DNA of 64,000 nucleotides from positions 500,610 to 564,609 of the forward strand of contig CAVYTM010000003.1 of the NCBI GenBank assembly GCA_963771555.1. The letters run 5' to 3'. The number at the start of each line of letters is the position of its first letter. The first letter of the stretch is position 1. Position numbers and translations under genes: made by a program. The notes beneath the pieces are model-generated. The model saw only the letters and a list, made by a program, of their open reading frames with translations. It was not told where the DNA came from and ran no database searches. Shown piece by piece: positions 1 to 63,644 of the stretch. This stretch comes from an uncultured Thermoplasmata archaeon. GTDB taxonomy: Archaea; Thermoplasmatota; Thermoplasmata; Lutacidiplasmatales; UBA184.

Positions 1-11
1 GGGCGCCCCCC

Positions 12-1031
12 GTGAAAGTCTTTGTTACGGGCGGTGGGGGGTACATTGGTACTTCCCTCGTCCCGATGCTCCTCGAGGCCGGGCATCAGGTCACGGTCGT
101 GGACCGTTTCTTCTTCGGAGACCAGGTCTTCGCGGGACTCCGCAACAATCGCTCCCTCCGGCTCGCCCGCGATGACGTCCGATGGTTCGATGGGAAGCTG
201 CTCTCCGGCCACGATGCCGTCATCGACATGGCCGCGCTCTCCAACGACCCGGCGGGTGAGTTGGACCCCTGGAAGACCTTTGAGATCAACTACCTCGGGC
301 GGGTTCGCACCTGTCGCCTTGCTCGGGAGGCAGGGGTCTCTCGATACTTGCTGACCTCCTCGTGCTCCGTCTACGGCTTCCGCGATGGACTTCTCGACGA
401 AACCACCCCTCCGAACCCCCTGACAGCGTACGCACGGGCGAACATCCTGGCCGAGGGTGACACGCTTCCGCTGGGTACGCCGACGTTCTGTCCGAGCGCG
501 GTTCGATTCGCCACCTTGTACGGCCTTTCGGGTCGGATGCGGTTTGACCTAGCAATCAACGCGATGGTTCTGGGAGCGCGGACTTCGGGCAAGATCCCGA
601 TCATGAAGGACGGCACCCAGTGGAGACCGTTCCTGCACGTCCGAGATGCCGCGCGGGCGCTGATCGCCCTGCTCGCCCAGAATCCGTCGTTGATTCAGGG
701 CCACGTGTTCAACATCGGCTCCGACGAACAGAACTATCAAGTCGCCCAGCTCGCGGAGCTCGTGGCCGCTTCGCTCTCGAAGCGACCGACTCTCGAGTGG
801 TACGGCGACCCTGACCTCCGGTCGTACCGTGTCAACTTCCGTCGCGCCCGCGAGGACCTTCGCTTCGCTCCCCGATTGACCCCGGCCGACGCGACGAAAG
901 AGATTGAGTCGGCGCTGGACTCCGGCGCGCTCGTCCCGTCCCCGCAGAACAAGACCGTCGACTGGTATCATCACCTGCTCAAGGATCCCGATGCCGGAAA
1001 ATCCGTGGCGCTTCACGGAATCGTGCTTTGA
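12..1031 (+). CDS. NAD-dependent epimerase/dehydratase (extended SDR)
   Basis: GGGGYIG Rossmann motif, SSCSVYG and YxxxN catalytic-type motif; GTG start. Confidence 0.9.
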   Translation: MKVFVTGGGGYIGTSLVPMLLEAGHQVTVVDRFFFGDQVFAGLRNNRSLRLARDDVRWFDGKLLSGHDAVIDMAALSNDPAGELDPWKTFEINYLGRVRTCRLAREAGVSRYLLTSSCSVYGFRDGLLDETTPPNPLTAYARANILAEGDTLPLGTPTFCPSAVRFATLYGLSGRMRFDLAINAMVLGARTSGKIPIMKDGTQWRPFLHVRDAARALIALLAQNPSLIQGHVFNIGSDEQNYQVAQLAELVAASLSKRPTLEWYGDPDLRSYRVNFRRAREDLRFAPRLTPADATKEIESALDSGALVPSPQNKTVDWYHHLLKDPDAGKSVALHGIVL

Positions 1032-1067
1032 GAACCCCCCGGGTCGTCCTCGGGGACTCCTCCTCCG

Positions 1068-1919
1068 CTAGCTCGAGAGGAGTATGCGGAGGGCGGTGTC
1101 GACCGAGGTGTACGTCACGCCCAGGCGTTCCGAACGTTCGACGTTGAGCGATGTATCTGCGGGGCGTCGAGCGGTCCATTGGGTCATGTCGGACACGCGC
1201 GAGGGGGCCACGAGCCCCGGGTCCGCCCCCACGACGTGGGCGATCTTCTGCGCGAACTCGAATCGTGTCAGCGGCTCGCTGCTGCCAACGTGAATCAGCC
1301 CTATGACGGACTGCCCGGTCAGAGTGTCGATCGCCCGCGCGAGGTCCGGGAGGAACGTGGCGGTGACCCGCTGGTCCGTAATTGCTTTGACCGACTTACC
1401 CGAGCGCAACGAATCGACCACGTAACGGAAGAACTGCGGCTTCCGTGCCCCGAACCCGCGTCCGTAAGGAGACGAGATGCGCACCACTAGGGACTCTGGG
1501 GAACGGAGCGCGACCTCCTCGCCCAACAGCTTCGACCGGCCGTACTCGTTCACGGGTTGAACGGCGTCCGTCTCGCGATACCCGCCCCGCGTCCCGTCGA
1601 AGACGTAGTCCGTAGATATGTGCACCAGGCGGAAGCCGACCTTCGGTTGGACCTCGACGAGATTCGCCACGATCAGCCGATTGAGGGAATCCGCCACCCC
1701 CGGCTCTCGTTCGGCACGGTCCACGTCGGCCAACCCGGCGCAGTTGATCAGTACCTCGGGCGCGAGAGGAAGGAGCTTGGCCCGGAGGTCTTCCACGCGG
1801 GTCGCGTCGACCGTGAGCAGCCCCTCGCGTCCGGTCAGCGACGTGCCGGGGCAGCCGAAGTAGTCGCGAAGCTCGCGGCCGAGGAACCCGCTCCCCCCGA
1901 GGACGACGGCCCGTTGCAT
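1068..1919 (-). CDS. rmlD: dTDP-4-dehydrorhamnose reductase
   Basis: GGSGFLG, HISTDYVFDG, PVNEYGRSKLLGE, RPADTSL motifs; start moved to MQRAVVLG (ATG at 1919). Confidence 0.9.
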   Translation of the reverse strand: MQRAVVLGGSGFLGRELRDYFGCPGTSLTGREGLLTVDATRVEDLRAKLLPLAPEVLINCAGLADVDRAEREPGVADSLNRLIVANLVEVQPKVGFRLVHISTDYVFDGTRGGYRETDAVQPVNEYGRSKLLGEEVALRSPESLVVRISSPYGRGFGARKPQFFRYVVDSLRSGKSVKAITDQRVTATFLPDLARAIDTLTGQSVIGLIHVGSSEPLTRFEFAQKIAHVVGADPGLVAPSRVSDMTQWTARRPADTSLNVERSERLGVTYTSVDTALRILLSS

Positions 1920-1924
1920 CGAGG

Positions 1925-2440
1925 TCACTTGTGAGGCGGCGCGTTCCAGTCCCACGTTCTACCGGAGCGAGGGTCCCGAAGGTTTCCGTTGATCGAGGTA
2001 GGAACGATCGTTAGGTCGTCCCACGGACGCCGGAGTTCGTCGGGCGCTTTCGCGTCGTATAGCCGGGTCACGAAGTAGATGGTTTCCGACGGTACGGGGC
2101 TCACGCACTTGGTCCCGTGCCAATAGTGGCCCCGAACCATGACCGCCTGGAACCGGTCGCCGCTCGCAACGATCTCGTCCAGTTCACCGTTCTGGGGGTC
2201 GCCGAGGTCGTTGTAGGCACAGATCTTGAGCGCTCCGCGAACTACGATGAAGATGTCGAACTGGCCCCGTTCGTGACGATGCCAAGCCCGGATCATGCCG
2301 GGATACGAAACCGAGTAATTGGCCTGGACGGGACGCTCCGAACCCAACAGCTCGGACCAGTCCTCTCGCATGACCTCGGTGAACGAGCCTCGGTCGTCGA
2401 TGTTGCGCTTGAGGTCGATAACGCGAACGCCCGGCAGCAT
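1925..2440 (-). CDS. rmlC: dTDP-4-dehydrorhamnose 3,5-epimerase family (cupin)
   Basis: DDRGSFTE, QANYSVS.PG.IRAWH.H motifs; adjacent to rmlD. Confidence 0.85.
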   Translation of the reverse strand: MLPGVRVIDLKRNIDDRGSFTEVMREDWSELLGSERPVQANYSVSYPGMIRAWHRHERGQFDIFIVVRGALKICAYNDLGDPQNGELDEIVASGDRFQAVMVRGHYWHGTKCVSPVPSETIYFVTRLYDAKAPDELRRPWDDLTIVPTSINGNLRDPRSGRTWDWNAPPHK

Positions 2441-2787
2441 GTGTACCCGCTACGAGCAGCCGCCCCCTTTGATTTAATACCTGAGGCGGGCGGCTAATAG
2501 CTCGTCGCCCGGCCGCGCCGTCGAGGAGGGGAGCCCTCGAGCTCGAGTCTCCCGACGCATTGCACCGATCTCCGAAGAGGTGGTCCGTAGCGGCCTGGGC
2601 CGCGGGACGACGAGGAAGCTGAGCTCGGAGTCGGAACTTGGGCATCGCACCGTCCAGCGCAAGGTGACGTTCGATCGAGCCGGGGGCGGCAGCAGTTCGA
2701 GATCGTTCCGGTAGGGGGTGGGTAGGCGCTCCCATCCGAGCCGATCGCAAGGGTTTCTCCGAACGGAAGACTCATGCTTACTGAGAC

Positions 2788-5523
2788 TTGGGGATTTTCG
2801 GCGGGAGGGGGAATGAGATTCGGGCGGGAATAGTTGCCTACCCCAGCGAAGAAAGCGACCTCGGCGAACGGTCGGGCGAGGCGGCGGCTCCGGTGAATTC
2901 GCTCTCCGGGTTTCGGCTATCAAGCGCGTTCCGATATCTGAGGAACCCGATCGTGCTGTTCGTTCTCGTCAACATTCCCTTCCTGTTCCTCTTTTACGAC
3001 GTGTGGAACCTCAACACCATCTTCTACGCCGCGAGCTACCTCGCCATCGGACTCAACCCGTACCAATATCACAATCTGATCACCGGCGGATTGCTGATCC
3101 AGTTCCTGGGTCTCACGTCGTACTACACGTTTCGGTGGTCGGGGTCGAACTACCTACTCTCCGCCAGCCTCATCAAACTCCTGTATCTTTCGCTGACCTA
3201 CCTCACAGGTCTCGTCCTTTCGAGAGTCGCCAAGTTCGAGGGCCTGGCGTATCACCGCAAGATCCTCTACGCGTTCATCTTCAATCCATTCCTGCTCTTC
3301 GTCAACAACGTTTGGATCGAAACGGACGTCATCATCGTCTTCCTGTACGTTCTCGGTTACGCCGCGCTCTACTACGGATGGGACCGAGGTGGAGAGCACC
3401 GGTACCTTGTCTTCGGTGTTCTGTGCATCAGTTTGGGGATCTTCAGCTACTACTCCATTGCACTGATCGTACCGACGCTGATTCTCTACCGCGAAACCCT
3501 TCGTAAGAAGCTGGAACTCTTGGTGGTCTTCCTCGCCATCGGTGGTCTGCTAAGCATCCCTCTTCTCGCGTTCGACCTCACCTCGCTCGGGACGGCTCTG
3601 GGCGGCCTCCAATCCCCCGGAACTCAGTTGGATGTGTACTCGATCTTCCAATTGATCTCACCCATCTCGGCCGACCGTTTGGCCGTCATCGAGAAGGGGG
3701 CGCTTGCCGTGATCGTGGGATCGTCGATCGTCGTCCCGGTCGTTCTGAAGCGATTGGGAGCCAAGGAACCGGTGAGCTTGCTCACGTCGTACGCGGTTGC
3801 GTACTTGGTCTTCGTCAACACGGTCCAGGGGGACAATCTCGTCCTTCTGACCGGACTGATCCTGCTCGCGCTCATCTCCTTCAAGGAGAGCACGCTCTCC
3901 TACAAACGAATCTTTCTCCTACAGCTGTTCATCCTCCCCCAATTCCTCGTCGCGGAGCTATTGGACGGGATCGGTCCCTCAACCGGCGTGTTCTACTGGT
4001 CGTTCTATCAGTTCCACGCAGCCCCGGATTTGTTCTCCCTACTTGGCGGAGTGAGCACGTGGCACTTTCTGCTCGTGGCGTACTTTGTCTCGCTCTGCCT
4101 CACCCTGGGGTACTTCCTCGTCCGAGGGACCCGACGGCACCCCGGGGCGGCGGCGCGCCTCCCACGCTCGGCTCCCTCGATGCATTCGTCCCCAGGGCCC
4201 CGCAACCTGCCCCGGGTGATGTCGACGGCTACGGTCATCGCGCTGGTTCTACTTGCCGGGGTCGTTCCCGCGCTGGTTCTTTGGGATCCCAACGTCGGGA
4301 AACCTTCGGGGACCCTCTCTGGCTTCGATGCCGGCCAGTTTGTCCCGCTTGAATACGGCTCCGAATGCATTCGCCCTCCCGAGTGCGCCTACCAATTATC
4401 GTCCTCTGATTCCTTCCAGGTGAATGGGTCGAGCTCGTCCGCCTACTTCGCGAATTCCTCGACCCCCATCGGCCTGTTCCGGAATATGACGAATCAACAG
4501 TTCACGATCAATTTCACCGCGAGCATTCCGCTAGCGGGGAACGACTCGACGACGGCGATGGACCTGGTCAATACTTCCAGCTTCTTTGCCGGCCTTCGCA
4601 ACGCTCTCATCGTGAACAACAGTTCACTCCTCACGCCGGCTCAGTCCAATGGGTCAGTGTCGATCGTCGAGGAGCCGAACCCGGCCCTTTCCGGAACGGA
4701 TACCCTCTTCCACCTCAACGGGGCCGGCGTCCGGACGTACTTTCTGAACCCTAAGGTGTTCCTTGGGCGGCAGATGGTCTTCGGGGCGGAGCTGACCACC
4801 AATGCCCAGAACCAGAATCTACTATGGGATATCTTTGGGATGAACTCCTCCTACGAGGGATATCTCCGGGGAAATACCTTCTATCTTGGTTACAAGGAAA
4901 GTCCGACGAGCGGCTGGGTCCTCGAGAGCTTCGCGCTCAATTTGCCGCTTAATCGGTGGTTTACCGCAGGGTTTGACGTGGACCCGATGGGGGACTACCT
5001 AACCGGCTTCGTGGACGACCACACGCTGTCGCTGCCGTACCTCTTCCGTTCGACCCCGGAGGTGAGCCTAAACATCGGCAAATTCAATGCCTCCAACCTC
5101 TTGAATGGTCAATTCAGCGTTTCCGGCCTCGTCACGAACCTCTACGCCTTGCCCTCGAACAACACCCACTACGCCCAGCTCGCGTACGCCTGGTCCTCCC
5201 TTTCCAATCGAACCACTGTGGTCCCGGCCAGCGATTACCTCACGGTGACGATTGTCGGGGGCAGCGAACGCACGACTCTGGCCCTGGATGGGACCGATAT
5301 TCCCGTCGGTCCTATACATGACCTGTGGCTCGGCAAGTTGTCGGATTCAGGTCTCTCCGTCAGTCTCGCGTTCGGTGAGGTGGCATTCTCTTCGTCGTCA
5401 TCTGGGCCCAATCTCGAGCTGGTCGTCCTCGACTTTGGCGTCCTAATCCCGGCCGTCCTTTCCCTCTGGACTTTCTATCGGCCGCTCGACCGATGGCTGC
5501 GCTCTCGCGCCCGTGGGAGCTGA
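2788..5523 (+). CDS. Multi-TM GT-C (GT87/DUF2029-like) protein fused to an extracellular beta-rich LamG/ConA-like domain
   Basis: Many hydrophobic helices with FNPFLLFVNNVWIETD motif, then about 400 aa beta-rich region with about a dozen N-x-S/T sequons and a C-terminal TM helix; start uncertain. Confidence 0.55.
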   Translation: MGIFGGRGNEIRAGIVAYPSEESDLGERSGEAAAPVNSLSGFRLSSAFRYLRNPIVLFVLVNIPFLFLFYDVWNLNTIFYAASYLAIGLNPYQYHNLITGGLLIQFLGLTSYYTFRWSGSNYLLSASLIKLLYLSLTYLTGLVLSRVAKFEGLAYHRKILYAFIFNPFLLFVNNVWIETDVIIVFLYVLGYAALYYGWDRGGEHRYLVFGVLCISLGIFSYYSIALIVPTLILYRETLRKKLELLVVFLAIGGLLSIPLLAFDLTSLGTALGGLQSPGTQLDVYSIFQLISPISADRLAVIEKGALAVIVGSSIVVPVVLKRLGAKEPVSLLTSYAVAYLVFVNTVQGDNLVLLTGLILLALISFKESTLSYKRIFLLQLFILPQFLVAELLDGIGPSTGVFYWSFYQFHAAPDLFSLLGGVSTWHFLLVAYFVSLCLTLGYFLVRGTRRHPGAAARLPRSAPSMHSSPGPRNLPRVMSTATVIALVLLAGVVPALVLWDPNVGKPSGTLSGFDAGQFVPLEYGSECIRPPECAYQLSSSDSFQVNGSSSSAYFANSSTPIGLFRNMTNQQFTINFTASIPLAGNDSTTAMDLVNTSSFFAGLRNALIVNNSSLLTPAQSNGSVSIVEEPNPALSGTDTLFHLNGAGVRTYFLNPKVFLGRQMVFGAELTTNAQNQNLLWDIFGMNSSYEGYLRGNTFYLGYKESPTSGWVLESFALNLPLNRWFTAGFDVDPMGDYLTGFVDDHTLSLPYLFRSTPEVSLNIGKFNASNLLNGQFSVSGLVTNLYALPSNNTHYAQLAYAWSSLSNRTTVVPASDYLTVTIVGGSERTTLALDGTDIPVGPIHDLWLGKLSDSGLSVSLAFGEVAFSSSSSGPNLELVVLDFGVLIPAVLSLWTFYRPLDRWLRSRARGS

Positions 5524-5553
5524 TCGTGCGATAGATCGCCCGCCGACGCAGCT

Positions 5554-7057
5554 TCAGTACCCCCACGATCTCAGGCGACGTTCGATACCCCCTTCGAAGG
5601 TCAGGATCCGGGTCGAGATTATCCGCGAGTGGAGAGCGAGGACTTCCCGCAGGGGGTCACGGTCGCCGAACTCGCCGGGCCGCCGGGTATTCGTTCGCGC
5701 CAAGGGGTCCAAATTCAGGTCGAAGGTTTCGACTAGGTTCCCCTCTGGACCGACGATGACCTTGGTGTCGAGCTGGTATCCCACCGCCCGCAATCCATCA
5801 ATGGCCTGTCGGATCTTGGGGGATACCCAATCGGCCTTGGGCGTGCCGAGTCCGGTGGAATAGGCGAACACGGGCCTCTTCCCGTCATTGTTGGAAATCT
5901 CCTGGATCGCCCTCGCTGAGGGAAGACTCGGTACATCGGCACCGATGGCGCGGAGGACCGTGGGAACGACGTCGATGAGGCTGACCCAGTTCCGAGCGTG
6001 GCGGGCGATTAGGGAATCGTCCGGCGTACGGATGTACATCGGAATCCGAAGCAGAGCTTCCTCTGTTCCCTGGGAGTGGAACAGGGTCCCGTTGGTGCCG
6101 AAGGCCTGGCCATGATCGCTCGTCAGAACGATGACCGGGTCGTTCCCGGGACGACGTTTTCGGATGATCGAGAGGATCCGCTCCAACCGTGGTCCGAGGC
6201 TCCGGATTGACGACCGGTAGAGGCGGGCAAGGGCTTCTTGCTCTTGAGACGACGGCGCCCAATGGCCGAGCAGCCAGCCGGTCCGATCTTGTCGGGGCAC
6301 GAAGTCGGCCTGCGCGGAAGAGGGACGGGGGGGGCGGGCAAAGTCCGGGTAGTATGGCTCGTGGGCATCCAACAAGTTCAGGAGCCCGAACACCGGCGTC
6401 TCCGCTCCCTGACGTTCCAACCAGCGCTCGAGCGTCGGTTCGATCCAAGGGGAGATGCTCGCGCTCGGCGGATGAGACGGGTTCCGTACCTTCTGGATCA
6501 ACCGACTGAGGTAGCGCCCGTACTTGGGGGAGCGTGCCATCATAGGGGCCAGATTGAGAAGTGCCTCCGGCGCCTGAATCCCCATGGAATCGCCTCCGTT
6601 CGGTGGGCTGGTACCGCGGGGGAGCGTCCCGTGGGGCGGCGACAGCCCTCCGGTCCGGAGGTAGATGTCCCACCATCGGCCCCACGCGCAGGCATCGAAG
6701 CCGTCCGTGAGCCCCGTGATCGGAGAAACCAGAACCGTTCGCGGAGAGGCAGCAACTCCGGTAACCGTGCTCTCGCAGGAGCGCGGGAAGGGTCCGGACG
6801 CCTTCTCGGGCCATCCGGAACGGCCGGGCCGGGTCGGGGGAAAGTTCCCAAGGATACAGTCCAGTCAGGAGACTTGCGTGCGATGGCAAGGTCCATGGAG
6901 CGACGGCCACCGCGCGCTCGAATCGGACCGACTCCCGGAGGAATTCGTCAACCTGCGCGAGCCCTCGGAACTCCGGCGCGACGCGCGAGAACTCGGCCGC
7001 CGAAACGCAGTCGAGGACTACAACGAACACGTCGGGACCACGAACGGGCGTCGTCAA
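5554..7057 (-). CDS. Sulfatase-like hydrolase/transferase (alkaline phosphatase superfamily), split by a +1 frameshift at about 6735
   Basis: VVVLDC, PWTLPSHASLLTG in ORF 5885-7057; HEPY and LTSDHGQAFG in ORF 5554-6585; removing one base at 6735-6736 joins them (SANVLVSPITGLTDGFD). Confidence 0.8.
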
Positions 7058-7182
7058 CAGCGCCTCTTCGGGACGGCTCGGGCATTAAAGATTTCTCGGC
7101 CAAGCGAAGCGGAGACCCTCCCTCCGCCGATTCGCAAGGAGTGCACAGACCAGACCCGGATTCAGTAATAGTCCAGGATCGG

Positions 7183-7673
7183 TCAGCCCCAGGCCTCCTT
7201 GGGGTGGTCGTACAACGCAATCATGTTCCCATCCGGGTCGGAAATGTACGAGACCCGAAATGCGATTCGATTTCCGGAAGATTCCGTCCAAACATGTTGC
7301 TGAATGGTCGTGGCCGAATCGGGGTCCGACTTCAGTTCTTCAACGGCGGTTGCGCTGGCCCAGAGCGTCTTCGTTACCGGCATGATCCCCCGCTCATTCG
7401 ACCGTTCGAGCATCTCCGGCAGGTTCCGGGCCCGTACCTCGATATGGTCAAGGTCTTCTCCAGGAACGTAGCTAGTCCAGAACGGCTCGACTCTGCGTAC
7501 CAGTTCAGCTCGATTCGTTGACCCGAGCGACGGTCGTGGAATAGGGCGTACGCCGCCTCTGAATCCGCCACTCACTTGAGCTCCTCGAGGTCCAGCAGCC
7601 GGGTATAGAACTCGATGGATTTGTCGAAATTCGTGCCCCGCAAGCCGAAGTCGCCAAGCCACGCGTCGGACAT
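7183..7673 (-). pseudogene. VOC/glyoxalase family pseudogene
   Basis: Reconstructed MSDAWLGDFGLR..SIEFYTRLLDLEELK*VADS..RIELNWY..LDHIEVR..YISDPDGNMIALY; in-frame TGA at 7572-7574 plus a frameshift at about 7484. Confidence 0.75.
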
Positions 7674-7719
7674 GAAGCGTTACCTCACCGCTCGGCTAGG
7701 GAGGTGTGATCCGGCAAAG

Positions 7720-7800
7720 AACCCCTTACGTGGGGCCGGGGCACACGCGCACGTTGACCCCGAGCCGCGGGAGGGCTTGAGCGAAAGTTTCAGTCCCAAC
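7720..7800 (+). repeat. att-like site A: left arm + 13-bp tRNA-Thr 3' core + right arm
   Basis: agccgcgggaggg at 7763-7775 is 13/13 identical to 9267-9279; right arm cttgagcgaaagtttcagtcccaac is 24/25 identical to 60314-60338. Confidence 0.85.
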
Positions 7801-7886
7801 ACCCCTCCAGCGAATTTTCCCACTGCGTGAGGGCGTCGGCGGAGTTCAATACCCTCCCGCTGCGGAGGTAGCCTGGCGGTCGGGGC

Positions 7887-8633
7887 ATGGGAGAGTATCT
7901 CGACGTCAACGGCGTCAGGACCTACTTCGAAACTCGGGGGAAAGGTGAACCAGTCCTCCTTCTCCACGGTGGGGGTGGCACTGTCGAGTCACTTTACGCG
8001 CAGGCTGACGAGCTGTCCAAGTTCTACTCCGTAGTGCTGCCGGAGAGACGATGGCACGGACGGTCCGCGTGCGTAGGAACCGAGCTGACGTACGAAATCA
8101 TGACGGCAGACACGATCGCTCTCTTGGACGCGCTGAAAGCACGGAAGGCGCATCTGATTGGCCACAGCGATGGGGCCAACGTCGCAGCGATGATCGCGCT
8201 AAAGCGTCCGGAACTCGTGCGGAAACTGGTGATGATCAGTGGCAACTTCAACTCTGACTACATGTCCGCCGAAGGCAGAGCTTCGCTCGGTCGGCTGACG
8301 GTGATTGGCCTGCGCGAAATATTCCCTGCTGTGGTCGACATGTATTACAAGGTCGTTCCGAACGCCGATGAACGATTCCCGATCTTGCTGGAAATGTTGA
8401 AGAAACTTTGGACCTCCGATTGGAGAATATCTTCTGAGGATTTAGGTCGAATCGGCGCTCGCACGCTGGTCATGTCGGCGGATCGGGATATGATTCCGCT
8501 GGCTCACACCCTTGAACTGTTCCGGTCCATCCCCCCAGCTCAGCTCTGTGTGATTCCGAATGCGAATCACCTCCTGGTGATGGAAAGTCCCGAAGCGGTG
8601 AACAGGGCGATCCTCTGCTTCCTCGAACCGTGA
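7887..8633 (+). CDS. Alpha/beta hydrolase
   Basis: LLLHGGGG, GHSDGA nucleophile elbow, C-terminal H (ANHLL). Confidence 0.9.
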   Translation: MGEYLDVNGVRTYFETRGKGEPVLLLHGGGGTVESLYAQADELSKFYSVVLPERRWHGRSACVGTELTYEIMTADTIALLDALKARKAHLIGHSDGANVAAMIALKRPELVRKLVMISGNFNSDYMSAEGRASLGRLTVIGLREIFPAVVDMYYKVVPNADERFPILLEMLKKLWTSDWRISSEDLGRIGARTLVMSADRDMIPLAHTLELFRSIPPAQLCVIPNANHLLVMESPEAVNRAILCFLEP

Positions 8634-8689
8634 ACTCCCCCGATGGGAGTCGGTGGGATGGCCAACCCTCCCTGTGCGAAAGTACCGGG

Positions 8690-8746
8690 CGGATGCCCTC
8701 GTGGACACGGAGCCGCGGGAGGACTTTAGCGATAGTTCGAAGCCCT
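8690..8746 (+). repeat. att-like site A2 (degenerate copy)
   Basis: gagccgcgggaggactttagcgatagttcgaagccc: core 12/13 to tRNA-Thr and 30/36 to site C at 62441. Confidence 0.75.
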
Positions 8747-8823
8747 TTCAAAAGGATGGGATTCCTCGGCGGGCGGCTACCGATCGGCATAGCCGACGAC
8801 TTGTTAGGCAACCCACGGGATTC

Positions 8824-9162
8824 TCATCGCTCGACCGGCTTGGACGAACCCAGGGAGCGCTCTGGAGCCGCTCCCGGTTTCGCCGTGGACTTCAGGACGT
8901 AATCGAAGAATCGGTAGACCTGTCCATCCTCGGCGGTCCATTCGGCGCGGAGGCGCGTCCTCTTCTCGACCTTCCGGAGAGCGGACAGGACCGAGCGGTT
9001 GAGGTCCTTCGCGCTGCCCCCTTCCATCGCAGCCTCGACCACGAACTCCGTTCCCTGCTCTCGGATCTGGCCGCCGGGGAACACTTCTCCGAGGATCGGT
9101 CGTATCCGCTCGAGGCTATCCGTGCTCACTCGGGCTACGAGTCGGAATCGACTTGCGGTCAC
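8824..9162 (-). CDS. Hypothetical protein (112 aa)
   Basis: Clean ORF with protein-like composition; TATA-like ttaaat about 30 bp upstream. Confidence 0.65.
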   Translation of the reverse strand: MTASRFRLVARVSTDSLERIRPILGEVFPGGQIREQGTEFVVEAAMEGGSAKDLNRSVLSALRKVEKRTRLRAEWTAEDGQVYRFFDYVLKSTAKPGAAPERSLGSSKPVER

Positions 9163-9266
9163 CGAGCCACCTCAGTTAGACCGGCCCCCGCGATTTAAGG
9201 AGCCCCGGGTCATGAGAGTGAAGCACCCATTGCCAAAGGGCCGGGCGCACGCCCGAGGTGACCGCC

Positions 9267-9340
9267 AGCCGCGGGAGGGATTTGAACCCTCGGCCTGCTC
9301 CTTACCAAGGAGCCGCTCTGCCAACCTGAGCCACCGCGGC
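9267..9340 (-). tRNA. tRNA-Thr(GGT)
   Basis: Cloverleaf: GCCGCGG/CCGCGGC acceptor, GCTCC-TTGGTAA-GGAGC anticodon arm, GAGGG-TTCAAAT-CCCTC T arm; CCA not encoded. Confidence 0.95.
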
Positions 9341-60290: not shown

Positions 60291-60338
60291 AGGAATTGCG
60301 GGCCGAAGGAGGGCTTGAGCGAAAGTTTCACTCCCAAC
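60291..60338 (+). repeat. att-like site B
   Basis: ggccgaaggaggg is 11/13 to the tRNA-Cys 3' end; right arm is 24/25 to site A; left flank ggaggaattgc resembles ggaggaactcc next to tRNA-Cys. Confidence 0.85.
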
Positions 60339-60446
60339 CTCTCGAAAACCCAACGAGTGCTTTTCGAGGACCTGCCTGTTTCAAACCTTCTAAGGGAACG
60401 GTCCGGGTGGGGTGCGGCTTAATCTAACCGAGACCAGTTTCGGGTC

Positions 60447-62435
60447 GTGGCCTCTACTCGAAGACTCGCCGCCATCATGTTCACCGACATGGTGGGCTCC
60501 ACCGCCTCGGCTCAAGCGAATGAGTCGCAAGCCCTCAAGCTCCGGGACGAGCAGTCGGAGTTGGTTCGTCCCCTCTTCCCCACGCACCATGGACGCGAGA
60601 TCAAGTCGATGGGGGATGGGTTCCTCACCGAGTTTGACAGCGCGCTTCATGCGGTCCAGTGCGCGATCGATATCCAGCAACATCTTCACGAGCGGAATTC
60701 ACAACCTGGCGTGGTACCCATCCAGCTTCGCATTGGGATCCACTTGGGGGACGTCGAACAGCGTCAGACCGACATCTTTGGCGACTCAGTGAACATCGCC
60801 GCACGGATCGAACCGCTCTCTTCGCCGGGCGGAATCTGCATTTCCGGTGAGGTGTTCAGTCAGGTTCGAAACAAGATTCCGAATCCGTTCGAAAAGCTTC
60901 CGCCGGCGACCCTGAAGGGGTTGCAAGGGCCGATCGACATCTACCGTGTTCTGCTACCATGGACCGTTCGCGAGCAGCCCTCCCGCGGCAACGGACCGAT
61001 CCGTCTCGCCGTGCTGCCCTTCACTAACATGAGCACGGACCCAGCCGATCTCTACTTCGCCGACGGCCTGACAGAGGAGCTGATCACCGTCCTATCTCAG
61101 CTCCGGGAACTTCGGGTCATCGCCCGCACGTCGGTGATGCCGTACAAGTCGAGCTCCAAAGGGGTGTCCCAGATAGGGGAAGAGCTCCGTGTTTCGTCGA
61201 TCCTCGAAGGAAGCGTCCGAAAGGCGGGAAACCGGCTTCGGGTGACCGCACAGTTGATCGACGTCGAGTCCGAGGACCACGTCTGGGCCAAATCGTATGA
61301 CCGACAGATCGACGATGTCTTCGCAGTCCAGGCGGAACTCGCCAAAGAGGTGGCGGATGCGTTGAAGATCGAACTACGACCGACCGAAACGGCGCGCCTG
61401 GAAGCCAGGCCCTCCGTGCGACCCGAATCTTATCTTGCGTATCTCAAGGGACGATCCGCCCTTCAATCCGTATGGAACGAAGAGGTCTTTCGGGGAGCGA
61501 AGCACCAATTCGAGCTCGCGCTATCCATCGATCCCGAGAACGCACGGGCTCATTCCGGGTTGGCGGATGCTACTATCCAACTCTGGTGGCACTACCGCGG
61601 TCGATCGGAGGGCGAGCGGGACCCGGCCATTCGAGAACATATCGAGCGTGCGCTGGAGGTGGACCCTGACCTGGCGGAGGCTCACTGCTCGCTCGCCCTC
61701 ATTCTGTGGGACGATTCGGACCACCGGCGGGCGGTTGAGGAGCTCCAGCTGGCCTTGTCCCTGAATCCGAGTTACGCGTACGCTCATTGGAGTTACGGGC
61801 ACCTTTTGTGGGTGTTTGACCGAGCCGAGGATGCCCTCGTAGAGTTCGAGCTCGCAGAGGAGCTCGACCCGAAATCGATGCAATTTCTGGTTTCGAGCGT
61901 AATGTTGCTGATTCAGCTTCGAAGACTCGATACGGCGAAGACCAAGTTGGAGAGACTCAGAGAGTTGGACCGAGACGGACCCACCCACCAAAGTTACCTC
62001 ACTTCCTATCAGTACGCTCGGTCGGACTTTGAGGGGGCTTTGCGGACCGCCGACCGATGGGACGAGCTCAATCCCGGAGCGTCCTGGCTTCGTCGCGTCC
62101 TAATCTACTCGGCGACGGGGAGGATCGAGGAGGCTCGGAAAGTGATCAAGCAACAGGAATCGAAGGCGGAAAAGCCGAGTCTCGAGGAGCTCGCCCGGTC
62201 GCATGCATTCGTTGGCGATCTCGATAGTTGCTTTCAGTACATGGACAGCGCACTCGAGGGCCACCAGCTGTCCATCCAATCCTGGCGTACCGATCCGGCG
62301 CTCGGACCGGTTCGCGCGGATCCCCGGTTCGGCCAGATCCTGAAGAAGTTGAACCTTGCCTATCCCTTGGCAACTGGGTCCCTTCGGGTCAGAGATCGCA
62401 CCCTTTGCTTGGAGCCCGCGCGCGGGCCCATGTAG
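60447..62435 (+). CDS. Class III adenylate/guanylate cyclase with TolB-like and TPR domains
   Basis: FTDMVGST, KSMGDGF, RIGIH.GDV, FGD.VN.AAR.E; LAVLPF.N, FADGLTEELI; TPR repeats. Confidence 0.9.
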   Translation: MASTRRLAAIMFTDMVGSTASAQANESQALKLRDEQSELVRPLFPTHHGREIKSMGDGFLTEFDSALHAVQCAIDIQQHLHERNSQPGVVPIQLRIGIHLGDVEQRQTDIFGDSVNIAARIEPLSSPGGICISGEVFSQVRNKIPNPFEKLPPATLKGLQGPIDIYRVLLPWTVREQPSRGNGPIRLAVLPFTNMSTDPADLYFADGLTEELITVLSQLRELRVIARTSVMPYKSSSKGVSQIGEELRVSSILEGSVRKAGNRLRVTAQLIDVESEDHVWAKSYDRQIDDVFAVQAELAKEVADALKIELRPTETARLEARPSVRPESYLAYLKGRSALQSVWNEEVFRGAKHQFELALSIDPENARAHSGLADATIQLWWHYRGRSEGERDPAIREHIERALEVDPDLAEAHCSLALILWDDSDHRRAVEELQLALSLNPSYAYAHWSYGHLLWVFDRAEDALVEFELAEELDPKSMQFLVSSVMLLIQLRRLDTAKTKLERLRELDRDGPTHQSYLTSYQYARSDFEGALRTADRWDELNPGASWLRRVLIYSATGRIEEARKVIKQQESKAEKPSLEELARSHAFVGDLDSCFQYMDSALEGHQLSIQSWRTDPALGPVRADPRFGQILKKLNLAYPLATGSLRVRDRTLCLEPARGPM

Positions 62436-62477
62436 ACCCTGAGCCGAGGGAGGGCTTGAGCGAGAGTTCGATTCCCT
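62399..62477 (+). repeat. att-like site C
   Basis: agccgagggaggg at 62442-62454 is 13/13 to the tRNA-Cys 3' end; both arms homologous to site A. Confidence 0.85.
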
Positions 62478-62572
62478 ACGCCCCAACCCGACCTGTCGGG
62501 GGGAGGGCAATTGTCGCTCGGAGCCCCTCGCCGCCGAATCCTTAACCGAAGCGCGAATCGTTCGACATTTGG

Positions 62573-63514
62573 GTGGGGGCTCACATGGGTGCCGGTCTAG
62601 AGGCGGCGAGCCCCAGCCGCTCCGTCTCCCGGGCGAGCCGATCTTTGCAACTCCTTTCGTTAGCCGCCGGCGCTCTCGCGATTTCGGGCGTCGGTGGCTA
62701 TTGGATCGCGGCCTCGGTCCAGTGTGGAATGTCTTCCACCCCGTTCCGACCGGCGGTTTGCCCACTGTCGAGCGAGCCTGTCGTGGAGATACTTGCTCTT
62801 CTCACGCTCGGCATGACCCTGGTCGCCGTCCCCGCTGTTTTGGGGGGCTTTGAGCGGGTGCTTTCCGTGGGCGCGGCCATCCTCTTCGTTGGAGTCTTTC
62901 AGTTCCCGGCGGGCGGCCTTTTCCCGACGTTGTTGCCCGACGCGCCGCTGTTCGATCCGCGCTTTCCCCCGTCGCTGTTCCTTCTCGTGTCGGGGTTCAT
63001 AGGATTCGCGGCGTCGGCCTGGGGTCGGAGCCGGTCCCCGACCGGGAACGGACCGTTCAATCGGCTCGCGACGGGGGCTGTCATGGTCGGCCTGACTGGA
63101 TGGGCCATGTTTTGGTTCCCCCCGTTTCTTGGAGGACCTGTCGACTCGGGCTGCCCGGTCTCGTTCGGGGGAGCATTACCCTGCACGGCACCCGCGTACT
63201 CTACGCTCACCCCGGTGCTGCCGGAATGGGCTTCGGCAACCTTGATCGCCTTCGCACTCGTGCTCGCGGTTCCGATGGTTTACCGCGCCCTAACACCGGT
63301 GAGCTTGGGCGCAGCTCTTTCAATCCTGGTCACCACCGACTACGTGTTCTGGATGTTCGGTTCCGATGATTGGGGGGCCGTCGGGGCCGCCATGTTCTGG
63401 TTGGCGGTGGGAGCGTCGATCGCGATCGCCGGCCTCTTCCAGAGCTTCTGGACGATGTATGTAACGCCCCGTTACGGGTCTTGGTGGTCGGCGACGCGGG
63501 TCAATCGGACCTAA
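62573..63514 (+). CDS. Hypothetical multi-TM protein with two Cys-loop halves
   Basis: About eight TM helices; two similar modules with paired-Cys extracellular loops (C.......C); TATA-like cttaacc about 30 bp upstream. Confidence 0.65.
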   Translation: MGAHMGAGLEAASPSRSVSRASRSLQLLSLAAGALAISGVGGYWIAASVQCGMSSTPFRPAVCPLSSEPVVEILALLTLGMTLVAVPAVLGGFERVLSVGAAILFVGVFQFPAGGLFPTLLPDAPLFDPRFPPSLFLLVSGFIGFAASAWGRSRSPTGNGPFNRLATGAVMVGLTGWAMFWFPPFLGGPVDSGCPVSFGGALPCTAPAYSTLTPVLPEWASATLIAFALVLAVPMVYRALTPVSLGAALSILVTTDYVFWMFGSDDWGAVGAAMFWLAVGASIAIAGLFQSFWTMYVTPRYGSWWSATRVNRT

Positions 63515-63571
63515 ACCTACCGTGCTTCGACGAGGGCGGCACGGTGCCGCAAGGATTCATGGAGGAACTCC

Positions 63572-63644
63572 AGCCGAGGGAGGGAATCGAACCCCCAGGA
63601 AACAGATCTGCAGTCTGTCGCATTAACCATTCTGCCACCTCGGC
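63572..63644 (-). tRNA. tRNA-Cys(GCA)
   Basis: GCCGAGG/CCTCGGC acceptor, ACAGA-CTGCAGA-TCTGT anticodon arm, GTTCGATTC T loop, T discriminator. Confidence 0.95.

Follow-up and report, generated by a model that had tools for sequence, protein, structure and literature searches.

The 3′ ends of tRNA-Thr(GGT) and tRNA-Cys(GCA) in an uncultured Thermoplasmata archaeon were each found to head a tandem array of small gene cassettes, and the arrays were probably built by serial site-specific integration of small circular cassettes that carry no recombinase gene of their own. Both arrays lie in a 64,000-nt stretch of DNA (hereafter the window; G000:C3:500610-564609) of a 1.83-Mb archaeal metagenome-assembled genome (MAG), designated G000, with 66% GC; Nop5 is also encoded in this 64-kb window. 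The tRNA-Thr locus would represent the tRNA-proximal end of a hypervariable island, and the cassettes measure 0.56–3.6 kb and hold one to three accessory genes. Five observations form the basis of this interpretation: repeats of the tRNA end with a conserved arm architecture, non-synteny of the array genes among relatives, relatives free of the tRNA-proximal cassette, the same cargo in varied positions, and arms that are matched within cassettes.

Sites and Arms of the tRNA-Thr(GGT) Array

The preliminary description of this DNA had placed two repeats of the tRNA-Thr 3′ end, site A (7763) and site A2 (8711), between the tRNA and its neighboring genes, and both were recovered (Table 1). The core AGCCGCGGGAGGG (plus-strand reading) occurs exactly at 7763 and 9267 and with 12 of 13 matches at 8711, on one strand in all cases. 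The chance expectation of an exact 13-mer within 2 kb is approximately 1.6e-4; together with the conserved arms and a total of only four sites genome-wide, this excludes chance repeats. The sites were also rejected as tRNA pseudogenes or known RNAs, since Rfam matched only the true tRNA at E ≤ 1. Similarity continues leftward from every core copy for approximately 46 nt, giving a 62-nt repeat family with 65–73% identity, and this conserved GC-rich arm was named P′. A second conserved arm, P, with the sequence GGAGG(G/A)CTT(G/T)AGCGA(A/T)AGTT(T/C).., lies to the right of both internal tRNA-Thr cores. A box common to all P arms, (G/A)GTT(C/T)(G/A)A..CCC, is located approximately 10 nt from the core and resembles an inverted T-arm.

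The deviating base of site A2 (GGAGGA) is positioned at the P-arm edge of the core. In the A2 subfamily, whose signature AGCCGCGGGAGGActttagcga(a/t)agttcgaagccc was present in at least 18 metagenome contigs, the tRNA identity starts one base later; the changed base is thus a conserved subfamily signature and not decay. For this reason, age cannot be read from the perfection of the cores; the preliminary description had considered an age gradient only partly supported, given the less perfect proximal core. The description of the locus as three single-gene segments was upheld insofar as an array of independently acquired, mostly single-gene units stands at the tRNA 3′ end. However, exact, fuzzy, and profile searches found no site to the left of the VOC remnant, so that only two tRNA-Thr segments are bounded on both sides and the third has a tRNA-proximal boundary only. 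Further degenerate sites of this att family were not found in the 38-kb island by profile search.

Table 1. Features of the two cassette arrays, with positions counted within the window.
Feature	Position	Strand	Remarks
VOC/glyoxalase pseudogene	7183-7677	-	frame broken at 2 or more places; remnant of an older unit
P′ arm (type 1) left of site A	7717..7762		would be part of whatever integrated before cassette 2
Site A core	7763..7775		13/13
Cassette 2 body	7776..8664	+	A-type P arm (7776 to ~7800), box GAGTTCAATACCCTCCCGCTGCGG, hydrolase; 948 bp core to core
Alpha/beta hydrolase gene	7887-8633	+	Pfam Abhydrolase_6/1
P′ arm (type 1) of cassette 2	8665..8710		conserved versus L219, where it adjoins the tRNA
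Site A2 core	8711..8723		12/13 (AGCCGCGGGAGGA); A2 subfamily signature
Cassette 1 body	8724..9220		AGCGA-type P arm (8724 to ~8760) and 112-aa gene; 556 bp core to core
112-aa gene	8824-9162	-	724 homologues; no Pfam family
P′ arm of cassette 1, type 1	9221..9266		GC hairpin and GTGACCGCC; directly downstream of the tRNA; 62-nt repeat family D1; arm type also in metagenome contigs
tRNA-Thr last 13 nt	9267-9279		proposed integration core (attB / current attL)
tRNA-Thr(GGT)	9267..9340	-	ARAGORN; Rfam tRNA, 65.9 bits
Second array, same site family, at tRNA-Cys(GCA)	60301-63644
Site CysB core	60301..60313		11/13, then A-type P arm; 20/20 identical to site A over GGAGGGCTTGAGCGAAAGTT
Cys cassette 2	60314..62441	+	adenylate/guanylate cyclase-TPR gene 60447-62435 (Pfam); 2141 bp
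Site CysA core	62442..62454		13/13 to tRNA-Cys, then A-type P arm
Cys cassette 1	62455..63571	+	313-aa membrane protein gene 62573-63514; 1130 bp; later insertion relative to L211
tRNA-Cys(GCA), second anchor	63572..63644	-	3′ end AGCCGAGGGAGGG, 12/13 identical to tRNA-Thr

The pairing of the two arms was analyzed in 44 cassettes. P arms were sorted into three classes (AGCGA, TCGTCG, and GGTTCGA) and P′ arms into T1 (a GC hairpin, then ..GACCCCG) and T2 (A-rich, ..GAAAATC). Within a cassette, the class of P′ can be predicted from that of P (AGCGA with T1, 14:3; other classes with T2, 18:1; Fisher p = 3e-6), and across the junctions, whose P′ and P arms stem from two neighboring cassettes, the classes were weakly associated (p = 0.06; AGCGA versus GGTTCGA, p = 0.49), all of these pairing p-values being optimistic because inherited arrays make the cassettes non-independent. 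The pairing fits the expectation for cassettes that were once circles, each with a single contiguous attP (P′-core-P) that recombined with the tRNA end.

In the proposed mechanism, each cassette would carry one attP, in which a core equal to tRNA positions 61/62–73 is flanked by a P′ arm and by a P arm whose inverted T-arm-like box reads GTTCGAA(T/G)CCC, and its target would be the last 12–13 bases of tRNA-Thr(GGT), with the same site family used at tRNA-Cys(GCA). Recombination of a putative circular intermediate with the tRNA end would regenerate the tRNA and push older cassettes outward. Catalysis would be provided in trans by a tyrosine recombinase, for which the int2 family, the host XerA, and an enzyme of an unsampled episome are candidates. 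Given such proximal entry, the order of arrival at tRNA-Thr would be the VOC unit, the hydrolase cassette, and the 112-aa cassette as the newest, and at tRNA-Cys the cyclase cassette would have been followed by the membrane-protein cassette.

The Second Array and Genome-Wide Count of Sites

The tRNA-Cys array carries the same site family as the tRNA-Thr array. The 3′ ends of the two tRNAs differ at one base, and each internal site has the base of its local tRNA. A pattern search of the whole genome (1.83 Mb) returned four sites only, all located downstream of tRNA-Thr or tRNA-Cys, and a profile built from 42 sites revealed no further site in the genome. The cyclase encoded at tRNA-Cys has approximately 10 paralogues in the genome.

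Comparable small units were also noted downstream of other tRNA genes. An exact 14-nt repeat of the 3′ end of tRNA-Ala(CGC) is present 671 bp downstream of it, with a GGATTCGAACC box before the repeat, and tRNA-Lys(CTT) and tRNA-Leu(GAG) show one-mismatch repeats at approximately 1.0–1.15 kb. The tRNA-Leu unit holds an alpha/beta-hydrolase paralogue, and a cyclase paralogue abuts tRNA-Val(TAC) (coordinates of these other tRNA units: G000 C1:370164-370235, C3:601559-601634, C3:1021661-1021747, and C3:1002929-1003001). The pattern may extend to other att families at these tRNAs.

Gene Order and Alternative States in Relatives

The pair formed by tRNA-Thr and an enoyl-CoA-hydratase (ECH) gene is kept in 30 of 31 genomes of the genus. 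Despite this conserved pair, the 12 kb downstream of tRNA-Thr in 20 genomes of the same genus contained none of the window genes that lie to the left of this tRNA, the three array genes included, and vertical conserved synteny was thereby ruled out. Conserved synteny of the three genes is the pattern that the preliminary description had named as speaking against separate acquisition, and the empty or alternative states that it had proposed to look for do exist in relatives (L219 and L211, below). The gene block usually found downstream is 1.4 kb from tRNA-Thr in G021, 3.6–11 kb in other relatives, and 38.5 kb in the present genome. This variable distance indicates that the tRNA heads a hypervariable island.

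The island stretches over G000 C3:471346-509875, and window positions 1-9266 are its right end. Its right 23 kb are low in GC (0.58–0.64) and encode rhamnose synthesis, a sulfatase, and a 911-aa membrane protein (surface/glycosylation functions). The sulfatase gene (window 5554-7057) is read as two overlapping open reading frames (ORFs) here and as an intact 500-aa gene in the same-species contig L061, which reflects either an assembly frameshift or a strain-specific pseudogene.

Several relatives possess their own core-repeat arrays with related P arms (G006, four; G024, two; G042, two). L219, a contig of a related species, is 79.5% identical across tRNA-Thr and ECH. Window positions 7771-8722, which span the complete hydrolase cassette (core A through core A2), show 74.7% nucleotide identity to L219, where the right end of the hydrolase block is the tRNA core itself and the 112-aa cassette is absent. 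Relative to L219, the 556-bp 112-aa cassette of the window is therefore an insertion exactly at the core. L219 itself holds six consecutive, mostly single-gene cassettes of approximately 0.7–1.2 kb each. A corresponding state was observed at the second anchor, as the cyclase cassette of contig L211 (80% identical across tRNA-Cys), whose P and P′ arms are the same, directly adjoins tRNA-Cys; the 313-aa membrane-protein cassette of the window is thus a later proximal insertion.

Cargo was also found in shuffled order. In L223, the hydrolase gene with 44 nt of upstream sequence (80% identical over 7843-8631) stands between two other cassettes and has different arms, so that the hydrolase cassette is known from three different neighborhoods (the window, L219, and L223). 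A cassette with a hydrolase and a 225-aa gene is the second in the array of G006 and the third in that of G024. Taken together, these states indicate that new units enter next to the tRNA and that cassettes assort independently.

Distribution, Size, and Cargo of the Cassettes

Of the 180 genomes in the GTDB family of uncultured soil/peat Thermoplasmata to which the archaeon belongs, 71 were matched by a sequence-only covariance model, although some weak matches were the tRNA itself. Arrays were present in about 40% of the species of the family and reached six units on one contig (G078, G116, G146, G188, G154, and G152). A scan of JGI metagenomes with the P-arm motif yielded 35 contigs, at least 19 of which carry genuine sites beside tRNA-Thr or tRNA-Cys; the arrays there number two to four. 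When all GTDB species were scanned with the pattern, Thermoplasmata MAGs were recovered and, elsewhere, roughly the estimated chance number of matches.

The core-to-core length of the 44 cassettes ranged from 556 to 3588 bp (median 1278 bp). The genes, one to three per cassette and in mixed orientation, are of accessory type, low in GC and patchily distributed. Among the nameable cargo are GNAT acetyltransferases, MarR, alpha/beta hydrolases, VOC/glyoxalases, a methyltransferase, DUF1326, NUDIX, SnoaL-like proteins, a squalene-cyclase-like protein, and membrane proteins. No integrase was detected in any of the 44 cassettes (tblastn with int2; ORF and Pfam surveys, with Pfam applied to some cassette ORFs), nor was a replication gene or a recognizable backbone fragment. 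In one cassette of G006 (L041 5269-6705), a 478-aa, CxxC-rich, transposase-like ORF splits an amidohydrolase-like gene, and insertion sequence elements may also land in arrays.

Comparison with Decayed Integrative Elements

Both bacteria and archaea are known to build tandem arrays by using a single tRNA site repeatedly (PMC6563490). It is unlikely, but not negligibly so, that the segments described here are decayed remnants, comparable to cis-mobilizable elements (CIMEs), of larger integrase-carrying elements or proviruses and were never mobile as small units. Tandem accretion followed by decay is a documented bacterial route to integrase-less att-flanked units (PMC5704250), and partial tRNAs and degenerate elements also fill the islands of tycheposons (10.1101/2020.12.28.424599). 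Beside the tRNA-Cys genes of G006 and G104 there is indeed an integrase, the VOC gene has decayed and lacks a distal site, and same-species contigs show no polymorphism. However, none of the 44 cassettes has an integrase or a backbone fragment, whereas both arms and a compact, intact gene are kept (the smallest cassette uses 556 bp for a 339-bp gene) and the arms are matched within cassettes. Moreover, the same small cassette is found intact in different arrays and positions, for which decay would need to have produced an identical minimal unit repeatedly.

Streptococcus CIMEs are decay products of integrative and conjugative or integrative and mobilizable elements, and usually occur singly beside a functional element (Pavlovic 2004; Bellanger 2011; PMC5704250). 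Like the present cassettes, CIMEs are flanked by attL and attR, lack integration genes, and are stacked through site-specific recombination at the 3′ end of a target gene; they are mobilizable only by an outside integrase. In formal terms, the two tRNA-Thr and two tRNA-Cys cassettes with both arms and both cores agree with the description of a CIME. They differ in that up to six units with one to three genes each are stacked, in many species, with matched arm families. No parent element was found in the genomes of the genus and family or in metagenome contigs.

The tycheposons of Prochlorococcus (Hackl et al., 10.1101/2020.12.28.424599) are integrase-carrying elements with approximately 1 kb for integration, 2–4 kb for replication, and cargo of up to at least 10 kb. 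Their islands resemble the tRNA-Thr locus in integration at the tRNA 3′ end, the use of few tRNA genes, the pushing of older elements into a hypervariable island, partial tRNAs as separators, and niche-adaptive cargo. In contrast, the 44 units examined here carry no recombinase or replication gene, have a median length of 1.3 kb, keep both att arms complete, and reside in an archaeal host. By the usual marks of a genomic island, direct repeats of the tRNA 3′ end with a regenerated tRNA are present, and an element-encoded integrase is absent.

Candidate Recombinases

The genome encodes two proteins with PF00589, an XerA-like protein (C3:573744-574223) and a second one named int2 (match at C1:103018-103491). 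The XerA-like gene is located 9.5 kb beyond tRNA-Cys and 64 kb from tRNA-Thr. No integrase adjoins either array, and no PF00589 signal was detected in the window. Orthologues of int2 (68–74% identical) lie 1.6–1.8 kb downstream of tRNA-Cys in G006 and G104, where the core is followed by 10 nt (GGAATTTCTG) that agree with the P′ arms of small cassettes in G168. The int2 segments beside tRNA-Cys in these two genomes showed no second core within 9–11 kb. Serine recombinases were absent from half of the array-bearing genomes checked.

The loci of int2 include L079 (10515-11462) and L161 (10341-11246). In G006 and G104, genes punctuated by a palindrome (described below) follow the int2 orthologues near tRNA-Cys. 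Upstream of int2, G000 has a gene with homology to the cargo of a tRNA-Thr cassette (L188, SQHop_cyclase_C-like).

Several results weigh against the serial integration of mobile cassettes by an enzyme acting in trans. The int2 gene of G000 (C1:102634-103587; L078 9634-10590) is on another contig, in an unrelated large low-GC island that bears many copies of the palindrome. Roughly half of the genomes of the genus have int2, and it is not clearly enriched in array-bearing genomes (approximately 22 of 36 versus 76 of 150 overall, by hand tally). The XerA-like protein is the only PF00589 protein in the array-bearing genomes G168, G116, G154, G155, and G126, and in G152, which has arrays and is 90% complete, neither XerA nor another tyrosine recombinase was detected. 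Pattern scans of IMG/VR gave no match to an attP-bearing episome. No excised circle was seen, and exact-protein look-ups revealed no within-species polymorphism, all same-species contigs sharing one arrangement. The VOC remnant without a distal site and the optimistic p-values of arm pairing belong to the same side of the balance. The enzyme could be int2 in trans, XerA, or a protein of an unsampled episome. Another possibility is that many arrays are no longer active.

Movement of the cassettes by the host XerA, in an arrangement like that of integrative mobile elements exploiting Xer (IMEX) or dif modules at the tRNA end, is an improbable explanation. It would account for cassettes without a recombinase and for the five genomes in which XerA-like is the sole PF00589 protein, and archaeal XerA binds stem-looped unrelated att sites weakly (PMC8371274). 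However, the tRNA-linked sites do not have the 11-6-11 geometry of dif, as their dyad has arms of approximately 8 nt with a spacer of 9–10 nt and is poorly conserved. Furthermore, arrays exist in G152 without a detected XerA, and the linkage of xerA to the tRNA is ordinary synteny. The pdif modules of Acinetobacter plasmids and IMEX are Xer-dependent, small, recombinase-less, mostly single-gene units bounded by short sites. The present cassettes share with them the small, recombinase-less format and a presumed dependence on a host or foreign recombinase; they differ in the lack of dif geometry at the tRNA-linked sites, a geometry that a dispersed palindrome elsewhere in the genome does have.

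Nature of the Junctions

It was also considered whether the sites are relics of an integrase gene of the Sulfolobus spindle-shaped virus (SSV) type (class I) that contained attP, in which case the arms would be leftover Int(N)/Int(C) coding sequence. A similar peptide (..A.A.VD.EPREG..) is encoded in one plus frame at four window sites and the tRNA junction, and several differences between sites A and CysA fall at third codon positions. In the wider sample of sites, however, in-frame stops occur 10–18 codons upstream of the core in L197, L209, L214, L215, and L211, the arm of L202 contains a 1-nt indel, and the P arms of relatives have an in-frame TAG. The ORF ends 18 codons past core A, and a PF00589 signal is missing throughout the window. 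The stops and the indel led to rejection of the coding reading of the arms, and such an origin is considered highly improbable.

To characterize the junctions as DNA structures, four of them were folded on both strands as single-stranded DNA (ssDNA), and the z-scores of -0.05 to -1.38 relative to shuffled controls gave no indication of attC-like folding. No covarying stem was seen by eye in an alignment of 34 sites, the P-arm dyad included. The junctions therefore look like ordinary duplex att sites and not like attC.

Integrons are the textbook device for single-gene capture and are essentially bacterial; Ghaly and colleagues reportedly described them in Archaea in 2022. A classical integron or a cluster of attC sites lacking an integron integrase (CALIN), that is, an IntI-type integrase with attC sites, has almost no chance of explaining the arrays, because the mostly single-gene cassettes, integron-type cargo, and anchor-proximal insertion are accompanied by no adjacent integrase, ssDNA folding no better than that of shuffles, sites defined by identity to the tRNA 3′ end, and mixed cargo orientation. 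Of the four features used to recognize integrons, only the anchor-proximal minimal cassette was thus found, while adjacent IntI, attC folding, and co-orientation, which in integrons accompanies expression from a common promoter (Pc), were not, in agreement with the preliminary description, which had set the locus apart from classical integrons. The likeness is one of principle, in that both systems have a fixed anchor, capture minimal cassettes with one site each in series, place the newest at the anchor, and carry similar cargo classes. The differences are the tRNA 3′-end anchor in place of attI, the absence of an adjacent integrase, the duplex-type att sites that share their sequence with the anchor, and cargo in either orientation, apparently with promoters of its own.

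Considering these comparisons, the tRNA-Thr and tRNA-Cys arrays are regarded as a new form of tandem accretion at tRNA sites, integron-like in its logic without being a classical integron. The novelty lies in the unit, which is minimal and recombinase-less, contains one to three genes, keeps both arms intact, and is stacked up to six times in tandem.

Genes Carried at tRNA-Thr(GGT)

The preliminary description had characterized the genes at tRNA-Thr by low GC of the hydrolase, alternating orientation, and decay of the most distal gene, and each of these points was borne out. With a GC content of 56.8%, the hydrolase gene falls at the 0.3rd percentile of long ORFs (median 67.6%); the corresponding values are 58.4% for the VOC remnant and 64.3% for the 112-aa gene. 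The genes are oriented -, +, - along the array. The frame of the VOC gene is broken at least twice, and the sequence read across the breaks matches Glyoxalase PF00903 (E = 1.3e-7). In same-species contigs, too, the gene is split into 33-aa and 130-aa pieces.

The proposal that each segment would have its own promoter gained indirect support from the mixed orientation across the 44 cassettes and from the conserved 44 nt of upstream sequence that the hydrolase keeps in three cassette contexts. A TTAAAT box was read approximately 35 nt upstream of the 112-aa gene. From orientation, leader, and box, each cassette gene would be expected to be expressed from its own promoter. The box GAGTTCAATACCCTCCCGCTGCGG (7843-7866), located 20–44 nt upstream of the hydrolase start, is conserved together with that gene in both L219 and L223. 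In inverted orientation it nearly repeats the T-loop and acceptor end of tRNA-Thr (17/20 to 9268-9287), and it may serve as a promoter or be left over from an earlier att site.

Relatives of the hydrolase within Thermoplasmata form a small cluster (13 clusters, 52–80% identity). Beyond Thermoplasmata, its nearest named relatives belong to Actinomycetota (Kitasatospora, Nocardia, Streptomyces, and Kribbella), with approximately 37–41% identity, a likeness that hints at an old transfer from soil bacteria.

Palindrome-Bounded Modules and Significance of the Arrays

A palindrome, GTGGGTGCAA-N6-TTGCACCCAC, was found 58 times in the genome compared with approximately 6 times in shuffles, and it is clustered in low-GC islands outside the window (G000 C1:13114-118216, C3:188-261 kb, and C3:608-655 kb; also L221 820-7601, L182, and L178). 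In related contigs, it separates single-gene modules every 0.65–2.5 kb, with toxin–antitoxin pairs, DndB, DpnI, cupin, and MarR among their genes. These modules also hold a 60%-identical copy of the hydrolase and 85–89%-identical copies of the 112-aa gene. The geometry of dif, the Xer site, consists of inverted arms of approximately 11 nt and a 6-nt spacer (PMC8371274), and the arms and spacer of the palindrome agree with it. The palindrome-bounded units may therefore be dif-module-like.

A broader interpretation is proposed tentatively, and with less assurance than the serial integration itself: soil/peat Thermoplasmata may possess a tRNA-anchored gene-capture platform in which minimal circular cassettes are inserted and excised singly at tRNA-Thr(GGT) and tRNA-Cys(GCA) by a recombinase acting in trans, possibly XerA. 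The bipartite attP of each cassette would mimic the T-arm and acceptor end of the tRNA, the same cargo would also circulate in a second and much larger system of single-gene dif-palindrome modules, and the whole would amount to an archaeal counterpart of the integron whose evolution was independent of IntI and attC.

The arrays look like a second solution to the capture of single genes, in an abundant uncultured lineage of soil archaea, and they will escape island finders that depend on an integrase or on a size of more than 5 kb. If the cassettes are individually mobile, the question arises of how recombinase-less cassettes move between cells. A defined pair of short sites (an attP of approximately 100–150 bp and a tRNA end), together with few candidate recombinases, would then also offer a possible genetic tool for archaea. 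Individual mobility of the cassettes would, moreover, explain the turnover of accessory genes in the small genomes (approximately 1.8 Mb) of these archaea.

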